54,353 bases of DNA from an uncultured virus (IMG/VR IMGVR_UViG_3300034082_002556) (Duplodnaviria; Heunggongvirae; Uroviricota; Caudoviricetes), in the IMG/VR virus record IMGVR_UViG_3300034082_002556. One strand, 5' to 3'. Shown here piece after piece: positions 24,767 to 51,327 of the stretch (positions are counted from its first letter, which is position 1; every line of letters begins with the position of its first letter). Made by a program: the position numbers and the translations under genes. Below the pieces are notes generated by a model. That model was not told where the DNA came from. It ran no database searches and saw only the letters and a program-made list of their open reading frames with translations.

Positions 24767-24996
24767 CTTGCGTATTTAAGACTAAACATAATTGCATCAT
24801 GTGGGTCTTTGAATGTGAAGTCCAGTATCCAGACATTTTCTTCAACTGAGTCAACTGGAGGAGAAACATAATACCACCGATTTTTATCTTTTCCAAAACT
24901 GGCGTAAATTTGTCGCAAGAGTTGTTGAACTTCATGATGACTGTAAGGACTAAACTTTATCCGAACAGTGGAATAGTCCGGGGTTGAGTCAGACAT
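24763..24996 (-). CDS. hypothetical protein
   Basis: 77 aa from ATG 24996; the start lies inside a hairpin. Confidence 0.65.
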   Translation of the reverse strand: MSDSTPDYSTVRIKFSPYSHHEVQQLLRQIYASFGKDKNRWYYVSPPVDSVEENVWILDFTFKDPHDAIMFSLKYAR

Positions 24997-25028
24997 AGCC
25001 CTATGTCCCTTCACTTGACTCAACCCCG
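24979..25028 (-). promoter_or_regulatory. nested RNA hairpin covering a translation start
   Basis: CGGGGTTGAGTCA/TGACTCAACCCCG (13 bp) enclosing GACATAG/CTATGTC. Confidence 0.6.
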
Positions 25029-25033
25029 TGCTA

Positions 25034-28806: not shown

Positions 28807-28828
28807 AAAAAGCCCACCGAAGTGGGCT
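28807..28828 (-). terminator. intrinsic terminator after tmRNA
   Basis: AGCCCAC-TTCG-GTGGGCT followed by a T run. Confidence 0.85.
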
Positions 28829-28829
28829 T

Positions 28830-29152
28830 CTAGAGTTTCTGTTACGAGGTATGTCTTACCCTAAGCTGAGTTTAGGCAGCTAATGCGAACTGTGAGTCGT
28901 TTGCGTTTACTTTGTTTTGCTTCTTCGACCGAGTTACCCCAATCCTACGGCTTCTACATTGCCGGACTGTCCATTTCAATACTCTTGACCCAATCGATCC
29001 TGTGTCAGGCCCATCATAAAAAGATTGCTACTATTACTATGAAAATTAATATTGCTAACAATGATGGTAATCTCACGTAATCTCCTTATGGTGGACCTGG
29101 CGGGCACTGCCCCCGCGTCTTGAATCCTTTTCTGTCTACTTCATACAGTCTT
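28830..29152 (-). ncRNA. ssrA: circularly permuted (two-piece) tmRNA
   Basis: T-arm+CAGGTCC-A-CCA (ends 29089) precedes the 5' GGGCCTG (29012); G3.U70 pair; tag ANDSQFALAA* at 28904-28872; outer ends approximate. Confidence 0.92.
29014..29076 (-). CDS. putative 20-aa hydrophobic peptide in the tmRNA intervening segment
   Basis: TAAGGAG-N5-GTG, MRLPSLLAILIFIVIVAIFL*. Confidence 0.45.
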   Translation of the reverse strand: MRLPSLLAILIFIVIVAIFL

Positions 29153-29161
29153 AACTTTTAT

Positions 29162-29338
29162 TTATTCTTCAACTCCGAAATGTGCCAGTATAATGTCTGC
29201 ATCGTAGTCTGCCAAGCAAAGTTCAGCACATTTCTTCACAATCAACTCGGCGAACTTTTCAGCATGGTCCACGCCCATCCATTTGCCACTAGTATCAGTG
29301 CCTGCTTGATTCATTAGTTGTTTAATTCGTTCGTTCAT
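29162..29338 (-). CDS. small hypothetical protein (58 aa, not in ORF track)
   Basis: MNERIKQLMNQAG...EKFAELIVKKC...HFGVEE; GGAG upstream. Confidence 0.7.
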   Translation of the reverse strand: MNERIKQLMNQAGTDTSGKWMGVDHAEKFAELIVKKCAELCLADYDADIILAHFGVEE

Positions 29339-29369: not shown

Positions 29370-29633
29370 TTATCGACCGGGAAGGCCAGGTGTGGCACTG
29401 TGTCGTTCTTTGCGTGTTCTTCGATCTTCCACATGCGTGGATTTTAGCAAAAGCTCACGCCCAATTTTGCCTTGTTCAATTTCTTCCAGAGCCTTGACAA
29501 GATTGCCCGAATTGCTGACAACAGTTGGTTGATACCCCACAGAAAGTTCTCTAGCACGCCTGGATGCAATCAGCACCAGGTCGTACCGGTTGCCCACTGC
29601 ACTTACTGCTGATTCACTGGTGTATCTGGCCAT
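29370..29633 (-). CDS. rpoZ: RNA polymerase omega subunit homolog
   Basis: MARYT...GNRYDLVLIASRRAREL...ALEEIEQGKI. Confidence 0.85.
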   Translation of the reverse strand: MARYTSESAVSAVGNRYDLVLIASRRARELSVGYQPTVVSNSGNLVKALEEIEQGKIGRELLLKSTHVEDRRTRKERHSATPGLPGR

Positions 29634-32407: not shown

Positions 32408-32491
32408 TGGTGCGAGTGGCCGGAGTCGAACCGGCACGCCCTAAGACGGGAGATTTTAAGTCTCCTGTGGCTACCATTACACCACACTCGC
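32408..32491 (-). tRNA. tRNA-Leu(TAA)
   Basis: Cloverleaf, long V-arm, CCA. Confidence 0.93.
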
Positions 32492-32498
32492 ATTAATC

Positions 32499-32580
32499 TG
32501 GTACCCCAACCCGGACTCGAACCGGGACGCCGAAGCAGTAGATTTTGAGTCTACCGTGTCTACCATTCCACCATCGGGGC
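32499..32580 (-). tRNA. tRNA-Leu(CAA)
   Basis: Cloverleaf, V-arm, CCA. Confidence 0.93.
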
Positions 32581-32582
32581 GT

Positions 32583-33011
32583 CTAAAAGTCTGCGGTAAC
32601 AGGCTTCAAATCTTCCACATCAGCTAGTCCGTCTTGGTTGTAACTGATGGATCCTCCGTAATAACCATTGTGGCTGTTACGAACTTCTAAATCTATATAT
32701 CCACGATCTGTGCGGATGGTCACAAATGCGTCATCGACGCACTCGTGTTCATCTTCGAGATCTTGTCTTTCAAAATCTTTTGACTCTACAGCCAACACTG
32801 TTGCACCACGCAGGATATCAAAAGAGTTGCCACTGCCCAGTACAGAGTCTACACCATTAACATGGTTGAACCACACAGAATTGCAACAATCATTTGCAGT
32901 GTCAAATCGATAGTGATTTCCGTTGATGTCGCGAAATACCAATGTCCATGCATCGTTGCCTATGAACATTCCGTTTATCTTTTTATTAACTAACACACTA
33001 AAGCACGACAT
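32583..33011 (-). CDS. hypothetical protein
   Basis: DCC..VWF and SHNGYYGG motifs; start at ATG 33011. Confidence 0.7.
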   Translation of the reverse strand: MSCFSVLVNKKINGMFIGNDAWTLVFRDINGNHYRFDTANDCCNSVWFNHVNGVDSVLGSGNSFDILRGATVLAVESKDFERQDLEDEHECVDDAFVTIRTDRGYIDLEVRNSHNGYYGGSISYNQDGLADVEDLKPVTADF

Positions 33012-33246
33012 CGCTAATCCTTTCTTTTTTAACGCGGCCAATTCGGCTTGATTTGTCCCAGTCGTAAGCAACACCGTCTGGACACACACCGTCTTTGACA
33101 GCGTCAACACCAAACACCCCGCATACTTCGAAGTCTGCTCCTGCAATGGTTACAAATACTCCAACAGTTTTGGCAAAGCTCATGGCCTCGTCCAAAGTTG
33201 CACATACGTTTAATGTTAGGTTATTTTTGCTGATTACTTTGTACAT
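32998..33246 (-). CDS. hypothetical protein (probably leaderless)
   Basis: ATG 6 nt after TATAAT. Confidence 0.7.
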   Translation of the reverse strand: MYKVISKNNLTLNVCATLDEAMSFAKTVGVFVTIAGADFEVCGVFGVDAVKDGVCPDGVAYDWDKSSRIGRVKKERISDVVL

Positions 33247-33252
33247 GCATCA

Positions 33253-33281
33253 ATTATACTACATTGTTGATTTTTGGTCAA
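33253..33281 (-). promoter_or_regulatory. sigma70-type promoter
   Basis: TTGACC-17-TATAAT. Confidence 0.8.
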
Positions 33282-33291
33282 CCATAAAAAA

Positions 33292-33422
33292 GCAAACATA
33301 CTGATTTCGCTAGGGCGTGTGTGAGATATCAGCATCTCTATGGGTCTTGCACCCGATCACCTGGTCCACTGGATTGTATCAAGCGCCAATGGTAGGTATA
33401 CCCCTACACGTCTAATGTTTGC
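33292..33422 (-). ncRNA. candidate structured ncRNA
   Basis: Closing stem GCAAACAT/ATGTTTGC with four internal hairpins. Confidence 0.5.
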
Positions 33423-33427
33423 AAAAC

Positions 33428-33501
33428 TGGTAGGTCATAACGGTAACGATCCGCTGTATGTGCAATGTCAATGCACCGCTCTACCTTTGAGCTAATGACC
33501 T
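33428..33501 (-). tRNA. tRNA-Val(GAC)
   Basis: Cloverleaf, CCA, variant T-loop ATCGTTA. Confidence 0.88.
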
Positions 33502-33510
33502 AAATATTCA

Positions 33511-34011
33511 TCAACTGCTTTCGTGAGTGTCAGTACCGCGTGGATCGTTTTCATCCGGTTGGTACAGATATGGACGATGTTTGATTTCTTCTTGTTCATC
33601 GTAAGTCCAACCCAGTGCCTTCATCATGCGATGTTTGACCAACAAGTTGGGACTGCGAAACACCTCAGTATCATCAAAGCCCAGCATGACACCAACTTCG
33701 CACACTGCACCACTACGGCAAACACCCGCCACACAGTGAACAACCACATTCATGTGATTGTCCTTTGCATGTTGCAATAGTCGAACAAGCTCGTTGGCCT
33801 GCTCTTGACTGCACCGCATGGCTTCGTCTAATGCAAAATCATTTTCTTCAATGTCTAAGAATTCAAATTGATGAACTTGCTTGAACTTGTACAAGGGTGT
33901 GGGAAAGTCACCAGGTGGATCCACAATTTGAATCAGCATAGCGTTCTCACCGGGATTGATATGAAATCCCCGGGCAATGTCGCTTTTGGCTACGTTTTGA
34001 ATCCACGGCAT
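33511..34011 (-). CDS. protein-tyrosine/dual-specificity phosphatase-like protein
   Basis: VVHCVAGVCRS (HCx5R). Confidence 0.85.
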   Translation of the reverse strand: MPWIQNVAKSDIARGFHINPGENAMLIQIVDPPGDFPTPLYKFKQVHQFEFLDIEENDFALDEAMRCSQEQANELVRLLQHAKDNHMNVVVHCVAGVCRSGAVCEVGVMLGFDDTEVFRSPNLLVKHRMMKALGWTYDEQEEIKHRPYLYQPDENDPRGTDTHESS

Positions 34012-34028
34012 GGTGCACTCCTTTTGAT

Positions 34029-34103
34029 TGGTACCCTAGCGTGGGAACGATCCACGGACCTACGCCTTATCAAGACGGCGCTCTACCACTGAGCTACTAG
34101 GGC
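34029..34103 (-). tRNA. tRNA-Ile(GAT)
   Basis: Cloverleaf, CCA, T-loop ATCGTTC. Confidence 0.88.
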
Positions 34104-34109
34104 AATAAA

Positions 34110-34184
34110 TGGTACCTGGACACGGTTTCGAACCGCGGACCCTCTCCGTGTAAAGGAGACGCTCTACCCCTGAGCTATCCAGGC
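34110..34184 (-). tRNA. tRNA-Val(TAC)
   Basis: Cloverleaf, CCA. Confidence 0.93.
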
Positions 34185-34195
34185 AAAATCTCAAC

Positions 34196-34271
34196 TGGGG
34201 TGTCACACGGGGAACGATCCCGTACTACCAGTTTCACAGACTAGTGTGCGAACCTCTACACTAGTGACACC
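34196..34271 (-). tRNA. tRNA-His(GTG)
   Basis: Cloverleaf with G-1/C73, CCA, T-loop ATCGTTC. Confidence 0.9.
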
Positions 34272-34278
34272 ATAGAAC

Positions 34279-34587
34279 TTATTCCAACTCTGTTGGCGGC
34301 AAAATACCATTGCTATGTCGATCTGTAGATTTTTCTACATCTTGAAACAATCTCTTTTCTTGAGTTGTTAGTTTATCTTTGTGTGTTTTCCTAGGATTAC
34401 CACACAAATAACATTCAGGGTTACCACAATCCATGGCGTGATGTTTTGCTAATCGATGAGGCTCTTGTATGGCTTTATCTTTGTCAGTTAACCCATGTGC
34501 TTTGGCAATCTTGACTTGCTTGTTTACAGCATTTTCATCTTTTTGAATACGCTTCGAACGTTTGAATTTATCTGACTCACTGTTCAT
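34279..34587 (-). CDS. hypothetical basic protein with CxxxxCxxC
   Basis: CGNPECYLCGNPRK; start at ATG 34587. Confidence 0.7.
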   Translation of the reverse strand: MNSESDKFKRSKRIQKDENAVNKQVKIAKAHGLTDKDKAIQEPHRLAKHHAMDCGNPECYLCGNPRKTHKDKLTTQEKRLFQDVEKSTDRHSNGILPPTELE

Positions 34588-35110
34588 GCCATGATCCATC
34601 TTTGTGTTTTTCAATTGCCAACCTCAGAGCCTGCTCAACATATTGGTTAAACGTGATATCCAAGTCATGCGCCGCCTTCATGTATTTTAGCAAATCCTCG
34701 TCGGAAAAATCAACTGGCATTTGTACTCGAGTATCGTAAACCTCGCCAGCTACAATAGCTAGACCCTTTTGGATCCACTCATCGTCAACTTCAAGATTGA
34801 TATACTCAACATCGTCCCAGGCTTGATTACCTAATTCTCCGCGGTCAACGGATTCATCGGCATGTGCTTGAGTGTACTCAGAATTGATAATACGATATGC
34901 ACGATTGTTAGTGTAGTCACAAACATCAACTTCGTAGACCTCCTGAGTCTTTGTATCAAACACAATATTGGCACTCCAGCCGCCGGCGCCGTGAATACCA
35001 TTCCACGCACTCAGGCTATATGCATCATCACCAAAACAACTCCAGCCGTAGTCGCTACCCTCGGTAACACGATAATTCACTACTTCCATGAATTCTTTAA
35101 AAGTAATCAT
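34577..35110 (-). CDS. hypothetical protein
   Basis: Start ATG 35110 with AAGGA; acidic 177 aa. Confidence 0.75.
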   Translation of the reverse strand: MITFKEFMEVVNYRVTEGSDYGWSCFGDDAYSLSAWNGIHGAGGWSANIVFDTKTQEVYEVDVCDYTNNRAYRIINSEYTQAHADESVDRGELGNQAWDDVEYINLEVDDEWIQKGLAIVAGEVYDTRVQMPVDFSDEDLLKYMKAAHDLDITFNQYVEQALRLAIEKHKDGSWHEQ

Positions 35111-35149
35111 TTCAATTCCTTGGTTTAAATTACTGTCTCTGCATGTAAA

Positions 35150-35178
35150 ATTATACACTAACTGCAATTTGTTGTCAA
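35150..35178 (-). promoter_or_regulatory. sigma70-type promoter
   Basis: TTGACA-17-TATAAT. Confidence 0.85.
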
Positions 35179-35202
35179 TGCATTTGTTTTGCCAGTTATG
35201 AT

Positions 35203-35278
35203 TGGTACCGCTGAAGGGAATCGAACCCCTATCCCGACGTTCGTAGCATCGTATTCTTATCCATTGAACTACAGCGAT
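35203..35278 (-). tRNA. tRNA-Arg(ACG)
   Basis: Cloverleaf, CCA. Confidence 0.9.
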
Positions 35279-35284
35279 ATAAAT

Positions 35285-35361
35285 TGGTCGGTGTGACACG
35301 ATTCGAACATGCGACCACTGCGTCCCAAACGCAGAGCTCTACCAGACTGAGCTACACACCG
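35285..35361 (-). tRNA. tRNA-Pro(TGG)
   Basis: Cloverleaf, CCA. Confidence 0.92.
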
Positions 35362-35362
35362 A

Positions 35363-35515
35363 TTAACTTGCTACAATTTTTGGAATGTATGGCACTGCTC
35401 TAGGACCACCATACAGTTGTTCAAAAAGTCGTTTAGCCTCTTGCGGGGTGTCCGCATAGATACGCTTCTTTTCTTCACCTTGTGGTGTTCTTACAGTTGT
35501 TTCATACATTGGCAT
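35363..35515 (-). CDS. small hypothetical protein (50 aa, not in ORF track)
   Basis: MPMYETTVRTPQGEEKKRIYADTPQEAKRLFEQLYGGPRAVPYIPKIVAS; AAGGA upstream. Confidence 0.65.
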   Translation of the reverse strand: MPMYETTVRTPQGEEKKRIYADTPQEAKRLFEQLYGGPRAVPYIPKIVAS

Positions 35516-35529
35516 ATTGTATCCTTGAA

Positions 35530-35603
35530 TGGAGCGGGGTGCGAGAATCGAACTCGCAACTCTAACTTGGAAGGATAGCGTTTTGCCACTAAACTAACCC
35601 CGC
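35530..35603 (-). tRNA. tRNA-Gly(TCC)
   Basis: Cloverleaf, U73, CCA. Confidence 0.92.
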
Positions 35604-35611
35604 TTGGTTTT

Positions 35612-35685
35612 TGGTGCCCCATGACAGAATCGAACTGCCGTAACCTGATTACAAAACAGGTGTAATACCATTATACTAATAGGGC
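35612..35685 (-). tRNA. tRNA-Thr(TGT)
   Basis: Cloverleaf, CCA. Confidence 0.9.
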
Positions 35686-35702
35686 ATCTTTACTATATAT
35701 CC

Positions 35703-35777
35703 TGGTAGTGATAAGTGGGAATGATCCACTCTCCTCGCCTTATGAGGGCGGTACGCATCCATCTACGTCATATCACC
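35703..35777 (-). tRNA. tRNA-Met or Ile2 (CAT)
   Basis: Cloverleaf, CCA, T-loop ATCATTC; identity unresolved. Confidence 0.8.
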
Positions 35778-35878
35778 ATATAGAAACACACTAACGAACC
35801 TGGCTGTGGGGATCGAACCCACTAAATCCCGTAGCACCAGCAGTACTGCTACGATACTGGTTAATGTGTTTTTATATG
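35777..35878 (-). ncRNA. stem-enclosed tRNA-like element (T-arm, no D arm)
   Basis: 19-bp closing stem, hairpin CGTAGCA/TGCTACG, T-arm GTGGG-TTCGATC-CCCAC. Confidence 0.55.
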
Positions 35879-35954
35879 GTAGGGGCACAGGGATTCGAAC
35901 CCTGACCTGGCAGATTAAAAGTCTGCTGTGCTAAACCGTTAACACTATACCCCC
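35877..35954 (-). tRNA. tRNA-Lys(TTT)
   Basis: Cloverleaf, CCA. Confidence 0.92.
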
Positions 35955-35957
35955 ATA

Positions 35958-36034
35958 TGGTCCCTCCACTGAGATTCGAACTCAGACTTCTCGGATTAAG
36001 AGTCCGGTATGCTAACCAGTAACATCTTGAAGGG
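35958..36034 (-). tRNA. tRNA-Lys(CTT)
   Basis: Cloverleaf, CCA. Confidence 0.88.
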
Positions 36035-36143
36035 ATGGATCGTAAAGAATTGTCTTTTACGTGCCATCCAGGACCATACGGGGGTCTAGGATGACACTAT
36101 CGTTTCGCTGAACGTTTCATGTCATTTTCCTTAGTAAAAACAT

Positions 36144-36172
36144 ATTATACGACAAATGTCATTTGTTGTCAA
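36144..36172 (-). promoter_or_regulatory. sigma70-type promoter
   Basis: TTGACA-17-TATAAT. Confidence 0.85.
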
Positions 36173-36180
36173 GTCATTTG

Positions 36181-36258
36181 TGGCTGAGGATCTAGGATTC
36201 GAACCTAGGAATGCCGGAATCAAAATCCGGTGCCTTGGACCAACTTGGCGAATCCCCA
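36181..36258 (-). tRNA. tRNA-Gln(TTG)
   Basis: Cloverleaf, CCA. Confidence 0.92.
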
Positions 36259-36264
36259 ACAAAA

Positions 36265-36699
36265 CTACAGGTACTCGTAGTTTACTGTGTCTGTGTTGGT
36301 ACGGTAAACCTTGGCACCATTTTTGATATGGAACCTACGGGCCATCTCAGTGGGCGGACTCAGTGTAACAAACCGTTGAATACCTGGCTTGTTTTTTTGA
36401 ATCCAGTCTCTTGCTTCAAAGATCAAGTCTCGTCCTGCTCCTGCTTCGTAGCTCCAAATGGTGTAGAAAACCACAACAATTGGCTCTTGGGAAGGAGTAA
36501 ACAATTGGCTTTCACTTTCGGGCACAATTGACTGGTAGCTCACGCAAGTGATTGCGCGGGCAGTTGAGTCATTTTTGCGAGCAACAAAAATGTCTCTGTT
36601 TTCACCAACTCTTGAAGAAGTTGGTATGTGTGGGCGCACAGGATCTTGTGCAATAAACTCAAGAAATGAGTCAGCGGCTGATTTAATTAGATGTAACAT
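36265..36699 (-). CDS. hypothetical protein, GNAT-like fold possible
   Basis: VFYTIWSY..GAGR.LI and FVTLSP motifs. Confidence 0.65.
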   Translation of the reverse strand: MLHLIKSAADSFLEFIAQDPVRPHIPTSSRVGENRDIFVARKNDSTARAITCVSYQSIVPESESQLFTPSQEPIVVVFYTIWSYEAGAGRDLIFEARDWIQKNKPGIQRFVTLSPPTEMARRFHIKNGAKVYRTNTDTVNYEYL

Positions 36700-36777
36700 A
36701 ATATCCTTATATATCTATTTTTGTATTACAATAACATTAAACTCAGCATGGGCTCGGCTACAGCATAAGTATTCTTG

Positions 36778-37209
36778 ATGCTAATTTCCCTAACAATCAA
36801 TCCCACCCAAGTTTGTCAAGACATCAAAATTGATGTATCCTTAAATGGTCATTTGTTGTCTACCTTGGTTTGTGACCAAAAATGGACTTTTGAACATGAA
36901 CTTGATGAAAGTGATATTTCACAAGACCATGTGTTAACTGTGACCATGCATGGCAAAAATCAAACGCACACAGTGGTTGACAGCAACAACCTCATAGTCT
37001 CGGACTGCACAGTACTCGTTGAACATATAACATTTGATGGCATAGATATTACTGATCTCTATGCAAAAGGTAAAAAATGCTACACTCACGATTTCAACGG
37101 AACACAGCCTGAGTTTACAGACGAATTCTACGGAATCATGGGCTGCAACGGCACAGTAACAATTGATTTTTATACTCCAATTCACATTTGGTTATTGGAG
37201 AATTGTTAA
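36778..37209 (+). CDS. hypothetical protein
   Basis: ORF after a TAAGTA element; coupled to the radical SAM gene. Confidence 0.7.
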   Translation: MLISLTINPTQVCQDIKIDVSLNGHLLSTLVCDQKWTFEHELDESDISQDHVLTVTMHGKNQTHTVVDSNNLIVSDCTVLVEHITFDGIDITDLYAKGKKCYTHDFNGTQPEFTDEFYGIMGCNGTVTIDFYTPIHIWLLENC

Positions 37210-38186
37210 TGATTGTTGCTGAACAAGTGACCGGAGTTGTAGTAGAAGCTACATCGCATTGCAATTTGCATTGCCCACAGTGTCCTAGATACGATCAGGA
37301 AGGATTCTTAAACAAGTTTCTAGTGCCTGACCATTTGGACTTTGAAGCATTTGAACAAAACTTTGTACTGTCTCAGTTGCCAAACCTCAAACACATTGTG
37401 TTTGAAGGCGACTACGGTGATATCATGATGCATCCACGTGCCGAAAGCTTTTTTAGGCACTGCTCAAGTGTGGAGTCAATTGTTGCATACACCAACGGTA
37501 GCATGCGATCCACAACCTGGTGGGCAAATCTTGCAACCATTCCCAACTTGACAGTTGTTTTTTCAATTGACGGATTAGCTGACACCAATGCAACATACAG
37601 AATCAATGCTGATTTTGATAAAATCATGCGCAACGCCCGGGCATACATCAATGCAGGCGGTCGTGCCACGTGGAAATTTCTTGTGTTCAAACACAATCAG
37701 CACCAAGTGGCGCAAGCACAAGAACTTGCCGCTAGCATGGGGTTTGCTGATTTTCAAACACAATCAACCAATAGAAACTTTTGGGATAATCCAATTTGGC
37801 CGGTAAAGATCAACGGTGAGTACTCACACGATATTGAAATGAGTGACACAGCTGATTCTACTCGTACCAAGGATTATATTGTGGCGCTTGACAAAGTCAA
37901 ACAACAACAATTTACCAAACCATCTTGTTCCTGGATCAACAGTGGTAGAATTTACATAAACCACAAAGGGCATGTGATTCCTTGTTGCATGACCAGTGGC
38001 TTGTCTTGGCAACGCGATATATCTGCACAGTTGTGGCAGCGCATTATACAGCATGTGGATTCAATTGATATCAATCAGCACAACATTGCTGACATATTAA
38101 CAAGTGACTTCTTTGTGCATAATCTAGCAACATCGCTGTCCAGCGCCAAGACAGTACATCCAACCTGTTTGTCTCAATGTTCATAA
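37209..38186 (+). CDS. radical SAM protein with C-terminal SPASM/twitch-like domain
   Basis: CNLHCPQC, TNG, FSIDG, FKHNQHQ, G.VIPCC. Confidence 0.88.
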   Translation: MIVAEQVTGVVVEATSHCNLHCPQCPRYDQEGFLNKFLVPDHLDFEAFEQNFVLSQLPNLKHIVFEGDYGDIMMHPRAESFFRHCSSVESIVAYTNGSMRSTTWWANLATIPNLTVVFSIDGLADTNATYRINADFDKIMRNARAYINAGGRATWKFLVFKHNQHQVAQAQELAASMGFADFQTQSTNRNFWDNPIWPVKINGEYSHDIEMSDTADSTRTKDYIVALDKVKQQQFTKPSCSWINSGRIYINHKGHVIPCCMTSGLSWQRDISAQLWQRIIQHVDSIDINQHNIADILTSDFFVHNLATSLSSAKTVHPTCLSQCS

Positions 38187-38261
38187 TGGCCCGGCGTAGA
38201 GGAATCGAACCCCTATAATGACTTTAGAAGAATCATGTCCTATCCGTTGAACGAACGCCGG
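38187..38261 (-). tRNA. tRNA-Arg(TCT)
   Basis: Cloverleaf, CCA. Confidence 0.9.
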
Positions 38262-38267
38262 AGTATT

Positions 38268-38343
38268 TGGTCTCCCTACAAGGATTCGAACCTTGACCAC
38301 ACGGCCCCAAACCGTGTACGCAACCAGATAACGCTTTAGAGAG
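38268..38343 (-). tRNA. tRNA-Pro(TGG)
   Basis: Cloverleaf, CCA. Confidence 0.88.
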
Positions 38344-38350
38344 ATAAACT

Positions 38351-38425
38351 TGGTGGAGACCGTCGGTATCGAACCGATCTAGACACGAATCTTGCAAGGA
38401 TCCGCCGTAGCCCTCTACTGCCCCC
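38351..38425 (-). tRNA. tRNA-Ala(TGC), atypical D arm
   Basis: G3.U70, anticodon arm, T arm, CCA; shortened D arm. Confidence 0.78.
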
Positions 38426-38510
38426 ATTATAGAAACACACTTAAACAGTCCTTCAACGTTAGTCGCTATCTCCCTTACTATCGGGCGGATCTGTATGTGT
38501 TTCTATAATG
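38425..38510 (-). ncRNA. stem-enclosed spacer element
   Basis: Perfect 15-bp CATTATAGAAACACA/TGTGTTTCTATAATG. Confidence 0.5.
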
Positions 38511-38587
38511 GCTCCGCATCTGGGTAACGATCCCAGCTAATCATTGATTAACAGTCAAGCCCATGCACCATGCTCGGGTTCTGCGGA
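38509..38587 (-). tRNA. tRNA-Asn(GTT)
   Basis: Cloverleaf, G73, CCA, T-loop ATCGTTA. Confidence 0.85.
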
Positions 38588-38596
38588 ATAAAATTT

Positions 38597-38686
38597 TGGC
38601 GGAACGACTCGGACTCGAACCGAGAACCCGGATTACGCCGAGCGACAGATTAGCAATCTGCTCTAATACCATTATAGGACCGTTCC
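38597..38686 (-). tRNA. tRNA-Ser(GCT)
   Basis: Long V-arm, G73, CCA. Confidence 0.92.
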
Positions 38687-38699
38687 AAAACTTACAAAA

Positions 38700-38774
38700 T
38701 GGCTGGCCTTGAGAGGATCGAACTCCCACCCCTTGTTTCGAAGACAAGGATGATATCCATTTCACCAAAGGCCA
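38700..38774 (-). tRNA. tRNA-Arg(TCG)
   Basis: Cloverleaf, CCA. Confidence 0.9.
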
Positions 38775-38779
38775 AAAAC

Positions 38780-38853
38780 TGGTGCTCTCACCAGGTAACG
38801 ATCCTGGGTTGCTACATTACCAATGTAGTGTAATGCCTTTATACTATGAGAGC
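38780..38853 (-). tRNA. tRNA-Thr(GGT)
   Basis: Cloverleaf, CCA, T-loop ATCGTTA. Confidence 0.88.
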
Positions 38854-38861
38854 AATAAAAC

Positions 38862-38935
38862 TGGTGCGGGGTAAGAGAATCGAACTCTTGCTTAAACGTT
38901 GGCAACGTCTGGTTCTACCATTAAACTAACCACGC
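38862..38935 (-). tRNA. tRNA-Gly(GCC)
   Basis: Cloverleaf, CCA (A73 rather than the usual bacterial U73). Confidence 0.88.
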
Positions 38936-38959
38936 ATTTGCTATTTGCAAATAGCAAAT
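38936..38959. repeat. perfect 24-bp palindrome
   Basis: ATTTGCTATTTGCAAATAGCAAAT equals its reverse complement. Confidence 0.9.
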
Positions 38960-38964
38960 AAAAT

Positions 38965-39040
38965 TGGCTCCACAGCCTGGGCTCGAACCAGGGACCAAAA
39001 GATTAACAGTCTTCTACTCTACCAACTGAGCTACTGCGGA
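38965..39040 (-). tRNA. tRNA-Asn(GTT)
   Basis: Canonical cloverleaf, CCA. Confidence 0.93.
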
Positions 39041-39049
39041 ATAAAAATT

Positions 39050-39126
39050 TGGAGTAGGTGACAAGGATCGAACTTGCATAAAACGGATTTGCAATCCGCG
39101 GCCTAACCATTCAGCGACACACCTAC
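39050..39126 (-). tRNA. tRNA-Cys(GCA)
   Basis: Cloverleaf, U73, CCA. Confidence 0.88.
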
Positions 39127-39129
39127 ATA

Positions 39130-39349
39130 TTGCTCTGCATCCCCCGGCGGTAATTGTAGTACATCAGAAATTTGGTCAGCAAGTTTTCACTCACCAATTA
39201 GTTTTTCATCACACGTACCTTCCACCCGCTTCCCGACAGGGACCGTTATCGCATTGCTAGCGGCCTTTGGGTTCGAAGACTACCACCCGTACTTGTCACA
39301 GTACTTCTCATCGTGTGGGTCACACTATCCGGAGACACCCGGAACGTTC
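39130..39349 (-). ncRNA. candidate ~220-nt multi-hairpin ncRNA
   Basis: GC-rich non-coding spacer with at least six helices, starting right after the tRNA-Tyr CCA. Confidence 0.55.
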
Positions 39350-39438
39350 TGGTGGAGATGATAGGATTCGAACCTATTGCGTTTCTTAAGTACCGGATTT
39401 ACAGTCCGGGGCCACTCCACCATCGTAGCCGCATCTCC
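39350..39438 (-). tRNA. tRNA-Tyr(GTA)
   Basis: Long V-arm, CCA. Confidence 0.92.
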
Positions 39439-39442
39439 AAAG

Positions 39443-39517
39443 TGGTACTGGGTACGGGAATCGAACCCGTCTTACAAACGTGAAAGGCTTGTGTCCTAAC
39501 CGATAGACGAACCCAGC
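39443..39517 (-). tRNA. tRNA-Glu(TTC)
   Basis: Cloverleaf, CCA. Confidence 0.92.
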
Positions 39518-39645
39518 GTAAAGAAAAACCCTGAAGTAGTCCAGTCAAGCAACCAAACAGGGCCGTGTTAAAAAGAGAAACTGCTGTTGCAGGACCTAGT
39601 GCCTCAATGAGGGAAGTATCCAGGCGATGCAGTTTCAAAAATGAA

Positions 39646-39855
39646 TTTGAGAGTAGTGCCACCCTGTTATAGGCACCATTCACCCGATTTAACAAGTCCG
39701 GACGGGGTTCGGTACGTCACTTGGGATTCATCCAGCGTGGTAACCATGCTACACCGATCTTCCGATCAGCCGGGAGTCGAACCCGCTTGCCTTCTATTAC
39801 TCAGTACCTTCGAAGAATACTGCATAACGTGACTTCACTTGCTGACACTCTCAAA
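39646..39855 (-). ncRNA. candidate ~210-nt structured ncRNA with embedded T-arm
   Basis: Closing stem TTTGAGAGT/ACTCTCAAA, CGGG-TTCGACT-CCCG, GATC-GGAA-GATC and further helices. Confidence 0.6.
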
Positions 39856-39858
39856 ACT

Positions 39859-39934
39859 TGGCGGTCTTAGGGGGTAACGATCCCCACTCTTACGGCGTGA
39901 CAAGCCGTCGTGCGTCCATGAACACTTTAAGACC
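39859..39934 (-). tRNA. tRNA-Asp(GTC)
   Basis: Cloverleaf, G73, CCA, T-loop ATCGTTA. Confidence 0.88.
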
Positions 39935-39936
39935 AA

Positions 39937-40154
39937 CTATATTAAAAAATACTAAAGGAACCATTGTGCATCTATGTCTACCTATACGACCGTCTCGTAT
40001 AGGCCTGCACGGTCATTACTGCCTACATGCTCCGCCGCTTTTCTGAGCATTACTGCTCGGCTTCATGAACTCTGACTATTGAGCGTGGGCGGCCCCACTG
40101 TCCTCGCACAAAGTTCCTAACGGTGTAGGTAACCTTTAATACATTTTAATATAG
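39937..40154 (-). ncRNA. candidate ~218-nt structured ncRNA
   Basis: Closing stem CTATATTAAAA/TTTTAATATAG plus 9 bp, GTAA-loop hairpins, CCTATACGA/TCGTATAGG. Confidence 0.6.
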
Positions 40155-40187
40155 CAACCCTTGCGGGTTACTACAAGAAAACTCGAC

Positions 40188-40220
40188 TTTTTAAAGAACA
40201 TCTAGTTAATTTCTAACTAG
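40188..40220 (-). promoter_or_regulatory. boxB-like hairpin + boxA antitermination-like element
   Basis: CTAGTTA-GAAAT-TAACTAG then TGTTCTTTAAAAA. Confidence 0.7.
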
Positions 40221-40225
40221 TCTCT

Positions 40226-40254
40226 AGTATAACACGATGTGCAATACCAGTCAA
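40226..40254 (-). promoter_or_regulatory. sigma70-type promoter (P2 of the tRNA operon)
   Basis: TTGACT-17-TATACT. Confidence 0.8.
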
Positions 40255-40322
40255 TCTGTTTTGCAAAGTCCCTACAACTTCTAGGGTTTTTGCAACATCA
40301 GTTAATTTCTTAACTTGTTTCT

Positions 40323-40351
40323 ATTGTAGCAAAAATACGTTTACCGGTCAA
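40323..40351 (-). promoter_or_regulatory. sigma70-type promoter (P1 of the tRNA operon)
   Basis: TTGACC-17-TACAAT. Confidence 0.75.
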
Positions 40352-40407
40352 GTGAATTTTTGTTGTATTTTCACAACACTACCGGGGCCGCCCCTATAAG
40401 TATAGGC

Positions 40408-41295
40408 ATGACCAATCAAATACAACTTTCGACCAAGCACGGTCAGGTCCTGGTCGAACTACTTGACACTGAGTTTGTTCACTTCTGGAAAACTCATTAT
40501 GATCAAATGGTTGATTGTTACAGCCTAACACCTAGACACGTGCCCTGGCCCAATTATCAGCCCTGCAGCCACGAAACTGTTGACACACTAATTGATCGCA
40601 TTTTGAACGTGATCAAAACAATTAACTCCAGCAGTTACCTATGCCCGTTACCGGAAATTGTAACCAAAGATCAATTGAGTAGATTGGATTTGAGCACACA
40701 ACAATTGCTCAATCGATTACACAGATATGCAGTAGTAGCTACAGAATTTGGAAATCGATGGCATCACAACGGGCAGGAAGAATTTAACCCTGTACCCTAT
40801 ACCAACGATGAATTCATGTACAACATCAATGTGTTAAATCAAAGCATTCATTACCTTGAAGAATATGTAATAACACCACACAAACAAGAATTCTTGCGAC
40901 AAGTACAAACAGTAGAGTTTGTTTTTGAGTCATCTAAATACCAAGATGTTGACGTTTTTCTAGATGGATCAGCTGTTGCAATCCCTGACGAAATGCAACA
41001 GCATCTCAGATTGTCGGGGTATGATGTGTGGATCAAAAAAGATCTACTGGGAAAAGACTTTATAACTGCATTTGCAGATCATGATGACCCTGCACAATTT
41101 GACATACGTCCACCGCCTACAATCAGTGGCGGTATCGCAATTGATCTTGACCAAGGTAGGGACAACCTATTTGACAGTCCTTTATTTGCTGCCTGGCTCG
41201 GACAATCTCCCAATGATACACATGGTAGCTATCCATTGGGCAAAGTCATTTCTGGTAAAGAAAACTTATTAAAATTCAGCAGACGTTTCTGGTAG
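40408..41295 (+). CDS. hypothetical protein
   Basis: ATG 5 nt after TAAGTA; motifs shared with 10692..11780. Confidence 0.75.
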   Translation: MTNQIQLSTKHGQVLVELLDTEFVHFWKTHYDQMVDCYSLTPRHVPWPNYQPCSHETVDTLIDRILNVIKTINSSSYLCPLPEIVTKDQLSRLDLSTQQLLNRLHRYAVVATEFGNRWHHNGQEEFNPVPYTNDEFMYNINVLNQSIHYLEEYVITPHKQEFLRQVQTVEFVFESSKYQDVDVFLDGSAVAIPDEMQQHLRLSGYDVWIKKDLLGKDFITAFADHDDPAQFDIRPPPTISGGIAIDLDQGRDNLFDSPLFAAWLGQSPNDTHGSYPLGKVISGKENLLKFSRRFW

Positions 41296-41363
41296 CTCCA
41301 CCGGGTAACGATCCCAGGACTGCCGGTTATCAGCCGACTGTTATTCCATTTAACTACAGAGCT
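41290..41363 (-). tRNA. tRNA-Ile(GAT)
   Basis: Cloverleaf, CCA, T-loop ATCGTTA. Confidence 0.87.
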
Positions 41364-41371
41364 ATTCAATT

Positions 41372-41445
41372 TGGCACGGGTACTAGGGCTCGAACCTAGA
41401 ATGACAGAGTCAAAGTCTGTAGTGTTACCATTACACTATACCCGA
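41372..41445 (-). tRNA. tRNA-Gln(TTG)
   Basis: Cloverleaf, CCA. Confidence 0.92.
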
Positions 41446-41452
41446 ACAATCT

Positions 41453-41544
41453 TGGCGGAAAGCAGAGGAGTCGAACCCCATCCCATTTCTGAGAACCTGG
41501 TTTTCAAGGCCAGTCGCAGGACCATCCCCGCTGCATTACTTTCC
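41453..41544 (-). tRNA. tRNA-Ser(TGA)
   Basis: Long V-arm, G73, CCA. Confidence 0.9.
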
Positions 41545-41553
41545 ATTAACTAT

Positions 41554-41628
41554 TGGTGCCCCAGGATGGAATCGAACCACCACACCCTGCTTACAAAACA
41601 GGACCTCTACCACTAAGGATACAAGGGC
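41554..41628 (-). tRNA. tRNA-Thr(TGT)
   Basis: Cloverleaf, CCA. Confidence 0.9.
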
Positions 41629-41634
41629 AAAAAT

Positions 41635-41708
41635 TGGCGTACCCACTAGGACTCGAACCTAGACTGACGGTTTTGGAGACCGCGATGCTGCCATTACACT
41701 ATGGATAC
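41635..41708 (-). tRNA. tRNA-Trp(CCA)
   Basis: Cloverleaf, G73, CCA. Confidence 0.92.
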
Positions 41709-41717
41709 ATTAACATA

Positions 41718-41792
41718 TGGTGGACCGTAACGGGATCGAACCGTTCCTTAAGGCTTGCAAAGCCCTCGTGCCCCCAACAACACTTACAGCCC
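41718..41792 (-). tRNA. tRNA-Ala(TGC)
   Basis: G3.U70, cloverleaf, CCA. Confidence 0.88.
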
Positions 41793-41793
41793 A

Positions 41794-41858
41794 TACATTC
41801 TAAAACACACCATCTGCGGTATTGCAACCCAGATCAGCTTGGTGTATTTTAGAATGTA
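41794..41858 (-). ncRNA. stem-enclosed spacer element
   Basis: 19-bp stem TACATTCTAAAATACACCA/TGGTGTGTTTTAGAATGTA with one G.U. Confidence 0.5.
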
Positions 41859-42008
41859 GTGTGTTTCCACACCACATGATAGGGTCAATACCCTACCCAG
41901 GAGTCTTACTGTCTGTGTTACCGCCACAGAGTTCATGTGTCCTGTCCGCCCGTTTGCTTGTTTTTTTGAGTGCTTTAGCGGGACCTCGTTTCCCAATAGC
42001 ACTAAGTG

Positions 42009-42037
42009 AAAAACCCTGGAGTTTTTAATTCCAGGGT
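42009..42037 (-). terminator. intrinsic terminator / attenuator hairpin
   Basis: ACCCTGGA/TCCAGGGT followed by a T run. Confidence 0.8.
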
Positions 42038-42063
42038 CTTTGAATTTGTAGATGTTAACTTAG

Positions 42064-42195
42064 TTAATCATCCCATCCTTCAATAGACCCCGGTACTCCT
42101 GGAATACTATTCACATGATCATAGCCGCGTGACCAGGCTGTTGTCGCCTGTGTCAACATGGGTTTGGATCTTGTTAAAGTATTTGTTTTCATCAT
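42064..42195 (-). CDS. putative leaderless leader peptide (43 aa)
   Basis: MMKTNTLTRSKPMLTQATTAWSRGYDHVNSIPGVPGSIEGWDD, ATG 6 nt after TATAAT. Confidence 0.5.
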   Translation of the reverse strand: MMKTNTLTRSKPMLTQATTAWSRGYDHVNSIPGVPGSIEGWDD

Positions 42196-42201
42196 GTACC
42201 T

Positions 42202-42230
42202 ATTATAGTTTATTTATGATTGCCTGTCAA
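42202..42230 (-). promoter_or_regulatory. sigma70-type promoter
   Basis: TTGACA-17-TATAAT. Confidence 0.85.
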
Positions 42231-42280
42231 CCACTAAATTTATGTTTTATTTAGTCCAGTTGATTGGTATTCATTCAAGT

Positions 42281-42309
42281 ATTATACAACAAAAAGCTTT
42301 CTTGGTCAA
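42281..42309 (-). promoter_or_regulatory. sigma70-type promoter
   Basis: TTGACC-17-TATAAT. Confidence 0.8.
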
Positions 42310-44668: not shown

Positions 44669-46723
44669 TTACTTGCTTGTGGCTCTAAACACACCGTCCC
44701 AATCGCCGGGCAAGTTGGCCACACGCATTTCTGCAATACGTTCAACCCATAATTCGTAGTAATGGGTCATTTTTCCGTCAAATTCATCCTTGATGGTTTC
44801 AATCAAGGCAAGAGTCTTGTCCCACTGCTGTTTACGATAGTATTCTAACATCAAGTCGTGAATCTCTTTGGCATGATTCCATTTGGACATTTCCTCAGCG
44901 GTGGGATTGTAGAACACTGTGTATATGGTTACACCTTCTTTTTTGCCCTTGACTGCAATACAGTCTAGTTCAATTGTGAAATAATCAGTGCCCAATCGTT
45001 CAGCAGTGGCTGGGCCTAACACAATTAAAACTCCGTAATTTTTACTTTGTCCTTCGAGCCTACTAGCCAAGTTAACAGCGTCTCCAAGGCAGGTGTAATC
45101 AAACCTTTGTTCGCCGCCCATGTTGCCAACCACAACAACCCCAGTATTACAACCGATCCCAAGACCAAAAGGAGGCACGCCTTCTTCAGCAATTTCATCA
45201 TTAAATATTTTAACGGCATCCAACATCTCCAGTGCAGCCTTAACAGAATCTTTCGCATGTTTAGTATTATCTAACGGTGCGTTCCAAAATGACATTGTAG
45301 CATCACCGATGTATTTGTCAAGTGTGCCTTCGTTTTCAAGAATGACTTTGGTTACCACAGTCATATAACGATTCATGATTTTGGTTAGACCTTGTACATC
45401 TTTACCATAGTGTTCACTAATACTAGTAAAGCCACGCACATCGCTAAACTGAATTGTCAAGTCTTGTTCTGTTCCGCCTAGAACCAGTAAACTAGGATCC
45501 TTGACCAACTTGGCCACAAGATCTGGACTCAAGTAACTACCGAACTGTTTCTTGATCTGTTGCTTTTGCAAAAACTCACTCACAAACTTTACCATAAAGG
45601 CATGCAAAGCGACCAAGCCAATGCCAACTGCAAAGGCAGCACTATCGAATAAGAATAGGTAATGGCTATAAGCAAACATACTGCCAGCAATGACGCTGCC
45701 AATCGTAACCACAGTTGCCGCAATGCCCACATAAGTCCACCTCATTAAAAAGATTAATAAAATGCCAGCCAATGCAATGCTGACTATTTCTAGCTCATCG
45801 GCGTATCCAGGACGTTGAATTGATGTGCCACTCAACATTGTGCCTAACAAACTAGCCTGTAGTTCTTGTGGCCAAATTTCACCTCGACTGGTTGCAATTG
45901 GGTTTACAAGTCCTGCCGCACTCAGACCAACAATGACAATTTCGCCATTGAAGTCCTTGGGCAAATCAGCCAGACTATGTTGTGAGGGACGCTGGCTCCA
46001 ATCAATCCAAACACGGCTTAGCGGGTCCACTGTGATTTTGTTTAGCTTGGGAACCCTAAGTGCCTCTACACCCATGTCTGTGATTTTAACTTGTATCTTT
46101 GTGTCGCCTGCTGCCAGCCTCAAAGTTTCCAATGCCAAACTAGGATGTATAGTGTCTTGGCTCATGATCAACAAAGGCATACGTCGAACAACGCCGTCAA
46201 TCTCTGGGAATGTATTAACGACTCCAACACCGGCTGCACGTTCTTCTAGCATGGGAACGTTGGCAATGATACCAGGATACTCTACCAACGTGCCGTGTGC
46301 ATCTTGACCCACAACTTGAACAGCTGATCCAAATGTAGTGTTTTTACTTTTGGAACCAGCCACTTGAGGCAACACAGTGGCGTATTGTCCAAGAGCTTTG
46401 CTCAGTTGAACATCGCCACCAAATCTGTCAGACTCGGGCATGAGCACGTTAAACACAACCAATCCAGCATTGCGCTTGTAAAGATCTTCAATGATGGCAG
46501 CATAGGTTGTTCGCGGGAATGGAAATTGTCCATATTTGTCCAATGCCGCTTCGTCGATGTTTACTGTGTGTACTGGTATTTCTTTGGCAGGTTGGCTGGT
46601 AACCAATTGGTCAAAGTAGCGTAGTCTCACGCTTTCAACAAATGTAGGATCCCAGGCACGTACCAGCATCACTATTAACAAGGTGAGCAAGGCAGTCCAT
46701 GGGTTTAGTAATACTTTTTTCAT
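44669..46723 (-). CDS. CHASE2-domain class III adenylate cyclase
   Basis: IDE...FPFPR, DGVVRRMPL, three TMs, FSDVRGFT, DKYIGD, YTCLGDAVNLASRLE. Confidence 0.93.
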   Translation of the reverse strand: MKKVLLNPWTALLTLLIVMLVRAWDPTFVESVRLRYFDQLVTSQPAKEIPVHTVNIDEAALDKYGQFPFPRTTYAAIIEDLYKRNAGLVVFNVLMPESDRFGGDVQLSKALGQYATVLPQVAGSKSKNTTFGSAVQVVGQDAHGTLVEYPGIIANVPMLEERAAGVGVVNTFPEIDGVVRRMPLLIMSQDTIHPSLALETLRLAAGDTKIQVKITDMGVEALRVPKLNKITVDPLSRVWIDWSQRPSQHSLADLPKDFNGEIVIVGLSAAGLVNPIATSRGEIWPQELQASLLGTMLSGTSIQRPGYADELEIVSIALAGILLIFLMRWTYVGIAATVVTIGSVIAGSMFAYSHYLFLFDSAAFAVGIGLVALHAFMVKFVSEFLQKQQIKKQFGSYLSPDLVAKLVKDPSLLVLGGTEQDLTIQFSDVRGFTSISEHYGKDVQGLTKIMNRYMTVVTKVILENEGTLDKYIGDATMSFWNAPLDNTKHAKDSVKAALEMLDAVKIFNDEIAEEGVPPFGLGIGCNTGVVVVGNMGGEQRFDYTCLGDAVNLASRLEGQSKNYGVLIVLGPATAERLGTDYFTIELDCIAVKGKKEGVTIYTVFYNPTAEEMSKWNHAKEIHDLMLEYYRKQQWDKTLALIETIKDEFDGKMTHYYELWVERIAEMRVANLPGDWDGVFRATSK

Positions 46724-46751
46724 ATAATATTTACCTGGTATAAATTTGAAG

Positions 46752-46982
46752 TCACCCGGAAGTTTTAACTACTTCCAGTATGGTAATTTCTAATACTCTA
46801 TGCTTGCGATAATGCATAAAATTTTTGAACTTGGCTTCTATGTCCCGTTGAATGTATTCGTCATGGTAGGGCATGGTGGCCGTGTCTTCGTAAGGCTCGT
46901 CGTTTTCGTTTAACGCTATGAAGCTGAGCTTGACTGTGCCTTGTTCTGGCTCTTTAAACATTTTAACAAGTTTACTGAGCAT
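46752..46982 (-). CDS. hypothetical protein
   Basis: 76 aa from ATG 46982. Confidence 0.6.
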   Translation of the reverse strand: MLSKLVKMFKEPEQGTVKLSFIALNENDEPYEDTATMPYHDEYIQRDIEAKFKNFMHYRKHRVLEITILEVVKTSG

Positions 46983-46990
46983 AAGAATAG

Positions 46991-49551: not shown

Positions 49552-49560
49552 TGTTGCCCC

Positions 49561-50349: not shown

Positions 50350-50379
50350 TTTTGTTCTCCCGGTTTTTTACCGATGTTA

Positions 50380-51318: not shown

Positions 51319-51327
51319 TTTTTCTCC

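Follow-up and report, generated by a model that had tools for sequence, protein, structure and literature searches.

What are the folded, non-coding segments that lie between the tRNA genes of a large phage tRNA array, how would they be released and what governs their synthesis? These questions are raised by the window analyzed here, a stretch of 54,353 nucleotides (nt) of DNA from an uncultured virus of the Caudoviricetes (IMG/VR record IMGVR_UViG_3300034082_002556), in which a sequence-only reading had described an RNA island at positions 32408 to 42309 whose tRNA processing would release the segments as discrete RNAs. The island is, on balance, probably a phage stable-RNA operon modelled on the rRNA operon, releasing variable RNAs under translational feedback. 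Its rRNA-operon-like architecture is well supported; at the sequence level the support consists of strong sigma70-type promoters, boxA-like elements, punctuation by tRNAs, structured RNAs that are conserved, and one standard duplex, the carrier, around many unrelated cargoes.

The tRNA count of the sequence-only reading, 33 in the island and 35 in the window, was confirmed. ARAGORN at default settings called 28 tRNAs from 32408 to 41792, Rfam added two (35706 and 35880) and a relaxed threshold three more (38351, 38509 and 41453), giving 33, all on the minus strand; two further tRNAs lie at 53.8 kb. A second tRNA-Ala(UGC) (38347-38425, minus strand) and a tRNA-Asn(GUU) (38509-38587, minus strand), both missed by default ARAGORN and Rfam, have atypical D-arms and flank segment S7. 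The tRNA called Ile(UAU) (window 53823-53914, minus strand) is 92 nt long, which is unusual for its type. Eight non-coding structured segments are indeed found among the tRNAs between 32408 and 41858 and are designated S1, S2, S3, S4, S6, S7, S9 and S11. Homologues were sought from a starting set of 135 loci anchored on two neighbouring proteins, without selection on RNA, and the pool was enlarged to 770 loci by pattern scans and genome regions; counts given as unique are distinct sequences among the matching loci. The array comprises:

41794..41858, minus strand: S1, a 19-bp carrier stem around a T-loop mini-hairpin (RNase III consensus score 18; folding z -7.9)
41290..41792, minus strand: tRNA-Ala, Trp, Thr, Ser(UGA), Gln and Ile (tRNA calls)
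39937..40154, minus strand: S2, a 22-bp carrier stem around a conserved multi-helix RNA of ~175 nt (141 loci, 84 unique; covariation)
38187..39934, minus strand: tRNA block from Asp to Arg(UCU), with S3, S4, S6 and S7 between (tRNA calls)
39645..39858, minus strand: S3, an RNA of 214 nt built around a circularly permuted tRNA core (177 loci, 127 unique)
39570..39640, minus strand: S4, a conserved RNA of ~70 nt (62 loci, 28 unique)
39518..39568, minus strand: small, weakly conserved hairpin with a U-tail (folding and profile search)
39127..39349, minus strand: S6, an RNA of ~200-250 nt with two pseudoknots, a T-loop hairpin, an invariant internal loop and a kink-turn-like arm (218 loci, 139 unique)
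38424..38511, minus strand: S7, a 16-bp carrier stem around a 56-nt two-hairpin cargo (12 loci, 7 unique)
35203..36258, minus strand: tRNA block Gln, Lys, Lys, Met(CAU), Thr, Gly, Pro and Arg (tRNA calls including Rfam)
35775..35880, minus strand: S9, a 21-bp carrier stem that begins at the CCA of the preceding tRNA, its cargo having a canonical T-arm (14 loci, 12 unique; consensus score 19)
32408..34270, minus strand: tRNA-His, Val, Ile, Val, Leu and Leu (tRNA calls)
33292..33422, minus strand: S11, a self-closed multi-hairpin segment after tRNA-Val (folding z -1.9)

The tRNA strand folded better than its opposite in seven of the eight segments, S4 being the exception. Folding z-scores on the tRNA strand were -7.9 for S1, -6.6 for S7, -5.6 for S2, -4.9 for S9 and -3.1 for S4; relative to shuffles the folding energy was ordinary for S3 (z -0.7), S6 (-1.0) and S11 (-1.9). 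Minimum free energy z-scores alone support none of these three; the case for S3 and S6 comes from covariation. The T-arms noticed from the letters in several segments are borne out in S3 and S9, and S1 and S6 each contain a T-loop hairpin. The self-closure attributed to the segments holds for S1, S2, S7 and S9, through their carrier stems, and for S11; S6 has no long terminal closing stem. Rfam covariance models, those of GOLLD, ROOL and every other family included, matched no segment at gathering score and gave nothing convincing at E<=10.

How these segments could leave the transcript is suggested by the stems that close four of them. S1, S2, S7 and S9 are closed by similar stems of 16-22 bp, and the array contains six long stems where shuffles gave a mean of 1.1; as shuffles also reached a maximum of five, the stem count of the window is modest by itself. 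A shared carrier core was found in 379 of 514 long stems near tRNAs (the loci then in the pool), with the 5' arm CCATATWAAARCACAYT and the 3' arm AGTGTGTTTYWATATGG enclosing many unrelated cargoes, 18-293 nt in length, a distribution biased by the 35-65-nt scan. The outer carrier arm often includes the tRNA's own CCA. Among 265 distinct carrier arm pairs, G.U pairs on the tRNA strand outnumbered A.C pairs 301 to 105, which bears out the strand preference claimed earlier. A weak RNase III consensus is quoted in an excerpt of PMC4357697. Scored against this E. coli consensus, 459 carrier stems averaged 16.3 and their pair-shuffled versions 13.5; 31% of carrier stems and 5% of pair-shuffled ones scored >=18. 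In the window the scores were 19 for S9, 18 for S1, 16 for S7 and 15 for S2. The E. coli 16S processing stem, used as a control, scored 21 in the same register as the carrier, and this register agrees with the 115-nt and 33-nt cut positions of the 16S stem.

The carrier stem thus has the form of an RNase III substrate, an extended duplex in which consensus bases flank a staggered cut. A host RNase III is implied, since no RNase III gene was found in any of five complete relatives. The host enzyme would cut the 5' arm 10 nt short of its inner end and the 3' arm 12 nt in, freeing the cargo on a stem of ~10 bp and leaving short tRNA trailers and leaders to exonucleases and RNase P. Each of S3, S4 and S11 starts with a U-rich stretch that immediately follows a CCA or the preceding RNA; such starts are read here as sites for RNase E, and these three would probably be freed by RNase E together with RNase P. 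S6 could be freed by tRNA punctuation or be made from its own promoter. Release by tRNA processing, as first proposed, is partly supported: it agrees with the positions of S3 and S6 (below), but tRNA punctuation is only one of the routes; many segments have an RNase III-type carrier stem of their own, and two elements of the span are better read as cis-acting leaders that sense ribosomes.

Clustering of cargoes gave 205 families (a count that includes some double cassettes and mis-cut arms), 66 of them with at least two members and 139 singletons. A canonical T-arm occurred in 15 cargo families where 0.2 were expected, and a T-loop hairpin in 28 where 3.4 were expected. The contig has a second tRNA cluster, outside the window, and a further cassette with a 19-bp stem and a 35-nt cargo lies there (G000 C1, ~67697-67769). 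In the cultured phage RSP15 (L648) a CCA-anchored 19-bp stem encloses a 77-nt cargo at 4749-4863 (consensus score 17), and a 24-bp stem surrounds 290 nt at 1412-1749; similar inter-tRNA stems were seen in Sinorhizobium phage Phosso.

Several of the segments are conserved, with compensatory changes and independently of gene order, the tRNA neighbours of S2, S3 and S6 changing freely. S3 presents the parts of a tRNA in permuted order: a T-arm (from 39786), a tetraloop-capped 7-bp acceptor stem and a D-like arm with GG (39752-39740). Of 93 copies examined, 81 could be scored and 69 of these have the core, against 10.2 expected by shuffle; 12 mostly Watson-Crick pairs covaried at E<0.1 under a tree-based null. 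S3 profiles matched 24 of the 135 protein-anchored loci. S3 follows 27 kinds of tRNA. In 91 of 122 unique copies it starts directly after the CCA, at CCA+0; charging of S3 is doubtful, because the identity of the acceptor stem varies. The YrlA RNA shares the order V, T, capped acceptor stem, D, and in YrlA a 7-bp acceptor stem, the length also seen in S3, is linked to RNase P cleavage (both from an excerpt of PMC4201824). S3 differs from YrlA in its larger conserved 3' scaffold, in having no Rfam YrlA match and in lacking the Ro60-binding motif GNCGAAN0-1G near the 5' end, where the consensus, compared by eye, is GTCAGCAAG. No Ro60/TROVE gene (PF05731) was found in five genomes, four of them S3 carriers and one 65% complete; a host Ro60 is possible. 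With neither a Ro60 gene nor a Ro motif, membership of S3 in the YrlA family was rejected.

For S6, a model of 44 pairs over 56 sequences had 96.4% of its cells paired and 30 of the 44 pairs changing on both sides; none of 500 shuffles reached it, and slid controls were 35-48% paired. A tree-based null on 93 sequences concurs. The two pseudoknots are less firm than the stems, as they are mostly invariant and their compensatory sequences number just one or two. An invariant internal loop and a kink-turn-like arm are found in the 3' domain. S6 profiles matched 41 of the 135 protein-anchored loci. S6 follows nine kinds of tRNA; the start lay at CCA+0 in 46 of 130 unique copies, and no CCA stood just upstream in 42 of 130. 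A pattern scan of 185,579 GTDB genomes returned 42 matches, which were treated as chance because they lack the 5' domain and lie mostly inside long open frames.

The remaining segments are supported to differing depth. S2, whose profile matched 15 of the 135 protein-anchored loci, has three to four mostly Watson-Crick covarying pairs (E<0.1, tree-based null) in a long irregular helix stack with conserved junctions, on the shallower support of 46 sequences. S4 has two fully paired covarying pairs (E 0). The cargoes of S4, S7 and S9 are kept across phages and changing neighbours; that of S1 had one weak profile match and three look-alikes found by eye. For S11 no conservation was seen: it has no homologue among the 770 loci beyond two near-identical contigs, and a loose pattern scan added none.

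Synthesis of these RNAs appears to be tied to translation, through short sensor peptides that respond when it slows. Two parts of the island, 36035-36135 and 41905-42200, are probably cis-regulatory elements and not released RNAs, and the gap at 35362-35529 is no RNA either. There a conserved 50-codon open reading frame (ORF; 35363-35515, minus strand) lies between tRNA-Gly and tRNA-Pro. The regulatory features are:

42281..42309, minus strand: sigma70-type promoter, 11/12 match to consensus (promoter scan)
42202..42230, minus strand: perfect sigma70-type promoter (promoter scan)
42064..42195, minus strand: 43-codon attenuator leader peptide, with the antiterminator strand at ~42090 (ORF and homologues)
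42008..42041, minus strand: intrinsic terminator hairpin and U-tract, whose 5' strand can pair alternatively with the antiterminator (alternative pairing)
41905..42005, minus strand: conserved, pseudoknotted motif of the leader, probably acting in cis, that includes a boxA-like run at ~41973 (67/770 loci, 54 unique)
40188..40351, minus strand: two sigma70-type promoters (40351-40323 and 40254-40226), a GAAA hairpin and a boxA-like element (40200-40188), resembling an rrn leader
36061..36172, minus strand: S8, a promoter (36172-36144), a 7-codon Lys/Arg leader (36120-36097) and a hairpin (36097-36061) (promoter scan, pairing and homologues)
35945..35963, minus strand: target of the S8 loop, the tRNA-Lys(CUU) 3' end, spacer and tRNA-Lys(UUU) 5' end (19-bp duplex)

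The leader ATG lies 7 nt past the -10 box of the promoter at 42230, which would imply a leaderless start. Among 56 unique homologues examined, 40 had both hairpin elements, and in 38 of these the leader ORF crosses the antiterminator and ends ~25 nt before the terminator. Four of the 38 ORF calls were short alternative frames and were dropped; of the 34 leader peptides left, 24 contain all 20 amino acids, and 8 of 12 clusters at 60% identity have such a peptide among their members. The corresponding frequencies were 3.8% in proteome fragments, 4.4% in nucleotide-shuffled ORFs and 5.9% in other frames. A single Trp is present in 31 of the 34. The architecture is that of an attenuator, a leader ORF over an antiterminator and upstream of an intrinsic terminator; read-through would depend on translation. 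By the logic of classical attenuation a lagging ribosome frees the antiterminator. Ribosomes keeping pace on the leader would let the terminator form, and a shortage of any charged tRNA would make the ribosome lag, free the antiterminator and allow the tRNA operon to be read through. In the leader motif just downstream (41905..42005), five pairs reach E<0.1 with 80% pairing or more (50 sequences). A boxA-like run after the 40254 promoter recurs in many relatives, and the E. coli boxA was seen in locus L465.

S8 appears to be a second, narrower sensor. Of its 52 unique homologues, 47 stand immediately before tRNA-Lys, and the loop sequence of most tracks the changes at the tRNA-Lys junction. 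With a ribosome on the stop codon, the hairpin would be opened and left free to disrupt both tRNA-Lys acceptor stems; a stall at the Lys codons would protect them, so that a leader of Lys codons would gate the maturation of two tRNA-Lys.

What the released RNAs would do is a more tentative matter. They may act in trans on tRNAs and the translation machinery, as anticodon-less elbow mimics and other decoys, a proposal held at somewhat less than even confidence; it is favoured over other actions on three grounds: the enrichment of tRNA-like parts, the rapid turnover of cargoes and the proposed link between tRNA shortage and induction. Elbow mimics could absorb tRNA-cutting defence nucleases or tRNA-binding host factors as the real tRNAs refill the pool. 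A little less probable is an arms-race arsenal of interchangeable RNA cassettes, in which one RNase III carrier would deliver hundreds of distinct small RNAs, mimics of tRNA among other decoys, aimed at the defence and translation factors of the host and induced by a leader peptide that senses all 20 aminoacyl-tRNAs.

Several observations weigh against the operon as proposed. The RNase III consensus is weak and derived from E. coli, and may not be that of the host; S2 (15) and S7 (16) score only moderately on it, and S3, S4 and S11 fail it (9-10). Many cargoes may be neutral, since singletons abound and cargoes folded by themselves show little stability (median z -0.46). Families with tRNA-like cargoes are a minority, and no target protein was identified. 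The leader in the window itself contains 18 of the 20 amino acids, lacking Cys and Phe. Part of the homologue sets was gathered by exact-pattern scans, which inflates invariance at the pattern positions. Five RNA-labelled runs contained 5-8% of words, and RNA-run contigs of relatives cover S2, S3, S6 and S9 without ends, strand or a DNA control; being contigs only, these metatranscriptome matches count neither for expression nor for habitat.

Other explanations were weighed on the same evidence. The one with the best claim, though improbable, is that the stems are mere processing signals that split the tRNA precursor, with cargoes that are mostly neutral loops or decayed tRNAs and with S2, S3 and S6 alone functional. 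The 139 singletons among the 205 families, the weak folding of cargoes by themselves, the solitary S11 and the convenience of cut sites that would yield short tRNA trailers all speak for it. A small loop would suffice for processing, however, yet 66 families recur with internally conserved sequence, the cargoes of S4, S7 and S9 persist across phages and neighbours, and T-arms exceed shuffles ~75-fold. It is somewhat less probable again that the large RNAs are structural, either RNA-only scaffolds or oligomers of the GOLLD/ROOL kind or RNAs that bind the ribosome or the tRNA elbow, with the 3' domain of S6 mimicking the L1 stalk or the RNase P S-domain. GOLLD occurs in the same arrays in at least 2 of 20 relatives tested, and the invariant loop pair and kink-turn-like arm of S6 look, by eye, like 23S helices 77-78 in L465. 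The double T-loop signature of the L1 stalk, RNase P and T-box, AGNNA...UGNNA (PMC3664808, in excerpt), is only partly present in S6: its loops UGGAR and UAYAA fail it, and the first ends in A in 52 of 93 copies. A hidden Markov model (HMM) and a covariance model of the S6 3' domain did not find the E. coli L1 stalk (23S helices 76-78) at E<=10. The reading of S6 as an L1-stalk mimic or uL1 decoy was rejected, the likeness to helices 77-78 being by eye only and both models negative.

That S3, S6 and perhaps S2 are new ribozymes, cutting tRNA 3' trailers or otherwise processing the array as theta ribozymes do, is considered quite unlikely. The exact CCA+0 starts of S3 and S6 would suit such an activity, as would the two pseudoknots and many invariant unpaired bases of S6. 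Against it, no Rfam ribozyme family matches, an HDV-like descriptor (home-made and run with no positive control) placed none of its five hits at a tRNA 3' end, and the 42 of 130 S6 copies noted above have no CCA just upstream. Least probable of all, and very improbable, is that the closed stems act as DNA, as attC-like hairpin recombination sites or as products of inverted duplication that move cassettes. Outer arms do copy the upstream flank, often the CCA of the tRNA, and cassettes are shuffled among arrays; but the bias of wobble pairs (301 to 105) is toward the transcribed strand and the conserved core fits the consensus of an RNA nuclease in the right register. The stable-RNA operon under translational feedback accordingly remains the explanation preferred here.

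The kind of RNA is not new, since T4 rnaC and rnaD and GOLLD and ROOL are already known. Species 1 and 2 of T4 (rnaC and rnaD) are, by annotation, likewise small stable non-tRNA RNAs within a phage tRNA cluster, rnaC has a terminal T-arm, and RNase III participates in T4 tRNA maturation (PMC4810235, in excerpt). Sequence matches between the T4 species and the island are T-arm-sized only, however; at the threshold used the T4 cluster has no long carrier stem, no such attenuator was seen in the T4 stretch examined, and T4 has two RNAs where the relatives of the island have ~205 cargo families. GOLLD and ROOL are structured RNAs near phage tRNA islands whose function is given as not known in an excerpt of PMC12286853. 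They are 400-800+ nt long, whereas the island segments are 65-250 nt, and nothing in the window matched their Rfam models, either at gathering score or at E<=10. The GOLLD model works on this clade, since among the matches listed it detected GOLLD in L452 and L325, at positions other than those of the island families; island family profiles run against these two copies returned one 21-nt T-arm piece only. Both GOLLD RNAs (L452 1986-2452 and L325 83-549) contain an embedded tRNA, and an apparent carrier 5' arm directly follows each. Theta ribozymes sit at phage tRNA 3' ends (PMC10879173), as S3 and S6 often do. They are minimal HDV-like folds, whereas S3 and S6 are ~200 nt with other topologies, supported by covariation; Rfam HDV-type models found no match in the window.

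With the rRNA operon the island shares the RNase III register of the carrier and the E. coli 16S stem and a boxA-like run after the promoter. The carrier is unlike rRNA stems in being miniaturised, repeated many times, filled with interchangeable small cargoes and located in a phage. The trp, his and ilv leaders are ribosome-mediated attenuators, and the phage leader has in common with them a leader ORF, alternative pairing and an intrinsic terminator; it differs in sampling all 20 amino acids where theirs repeat one to three, and its targets are tRNA and ncRNA (non-coding RNA) genes.

Fremin et al. (2023) predicted 8,495 IMG/VR candidates of at most 151 nt (PMC10690425, in excerpt). Three supplement files of that paper contained none of six motifs sought, and fragments of the island RNAs may be among its candidates. 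Searches of the open-access literature (subscription papers were outside the scope) yielded no description of these RNAs, the carrier, the all-20 leader or the Lys switch. The RNA families, the all-amino-acid leader, the Lys switch and a carrier reused for ~200 cargoes are new, in that none was found in Rfam or in the literature searched.

The viral contig to which the window belongs is 72 kb long and carries tail genes, thyX and genes for the RNA polymerase omega subunit, CsgG and radical-SAM proteins; the clade is one of giant (jumbo) lake phages, whose complete relatives in IMG/VR are 343-364 kb. By the MoxR-type ATPase the closest cultured phages are PA5oct and Paride (51% identity), and immediately downstream of this gene lies a 19-bp inverted repeat with a 24-nt loop (window 24973-25034). 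Comparison with cultured phages by blastn gave tRNA matches only, and family profiles run against the Paride, Phosso, RSP15 and T4 arrays found nothing except one T-arm. A permuted two-piece tmRNA (window 28807-29219, minus strand; tag ANDSQFALAA), kept in relatives, adjoins the omega-subunit gene (29370-29633). Its top score was with the permuted model and the betaproteobacterial model fell narrowly below the cut-off, a weak hint at the host. A run of radical-SAM-like genes (window 2593-10705, labels by eye) and a curli-assembly CsgG cluster with a probable adenylate cyclase (window 44669-51801, labels other than CsgG by eye) were also noted.

Phage tRNA clusters have long held unexplained stable RNAs, and one clade now gives several families supported by covariation. 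A simple rule predicts their excision sites, and with ~200 cargo families to examine the function of such RNAs becomes directly testable; the all-20 attenuator (42008-42230) merits study as a separate finding. If they operate as proposed, the all-amino-acid attenuator and the Lys switch would place the tRNA supply of these phages under feedback control by the translation state of the host, which would bear on the reason why phages carry tRNAs.

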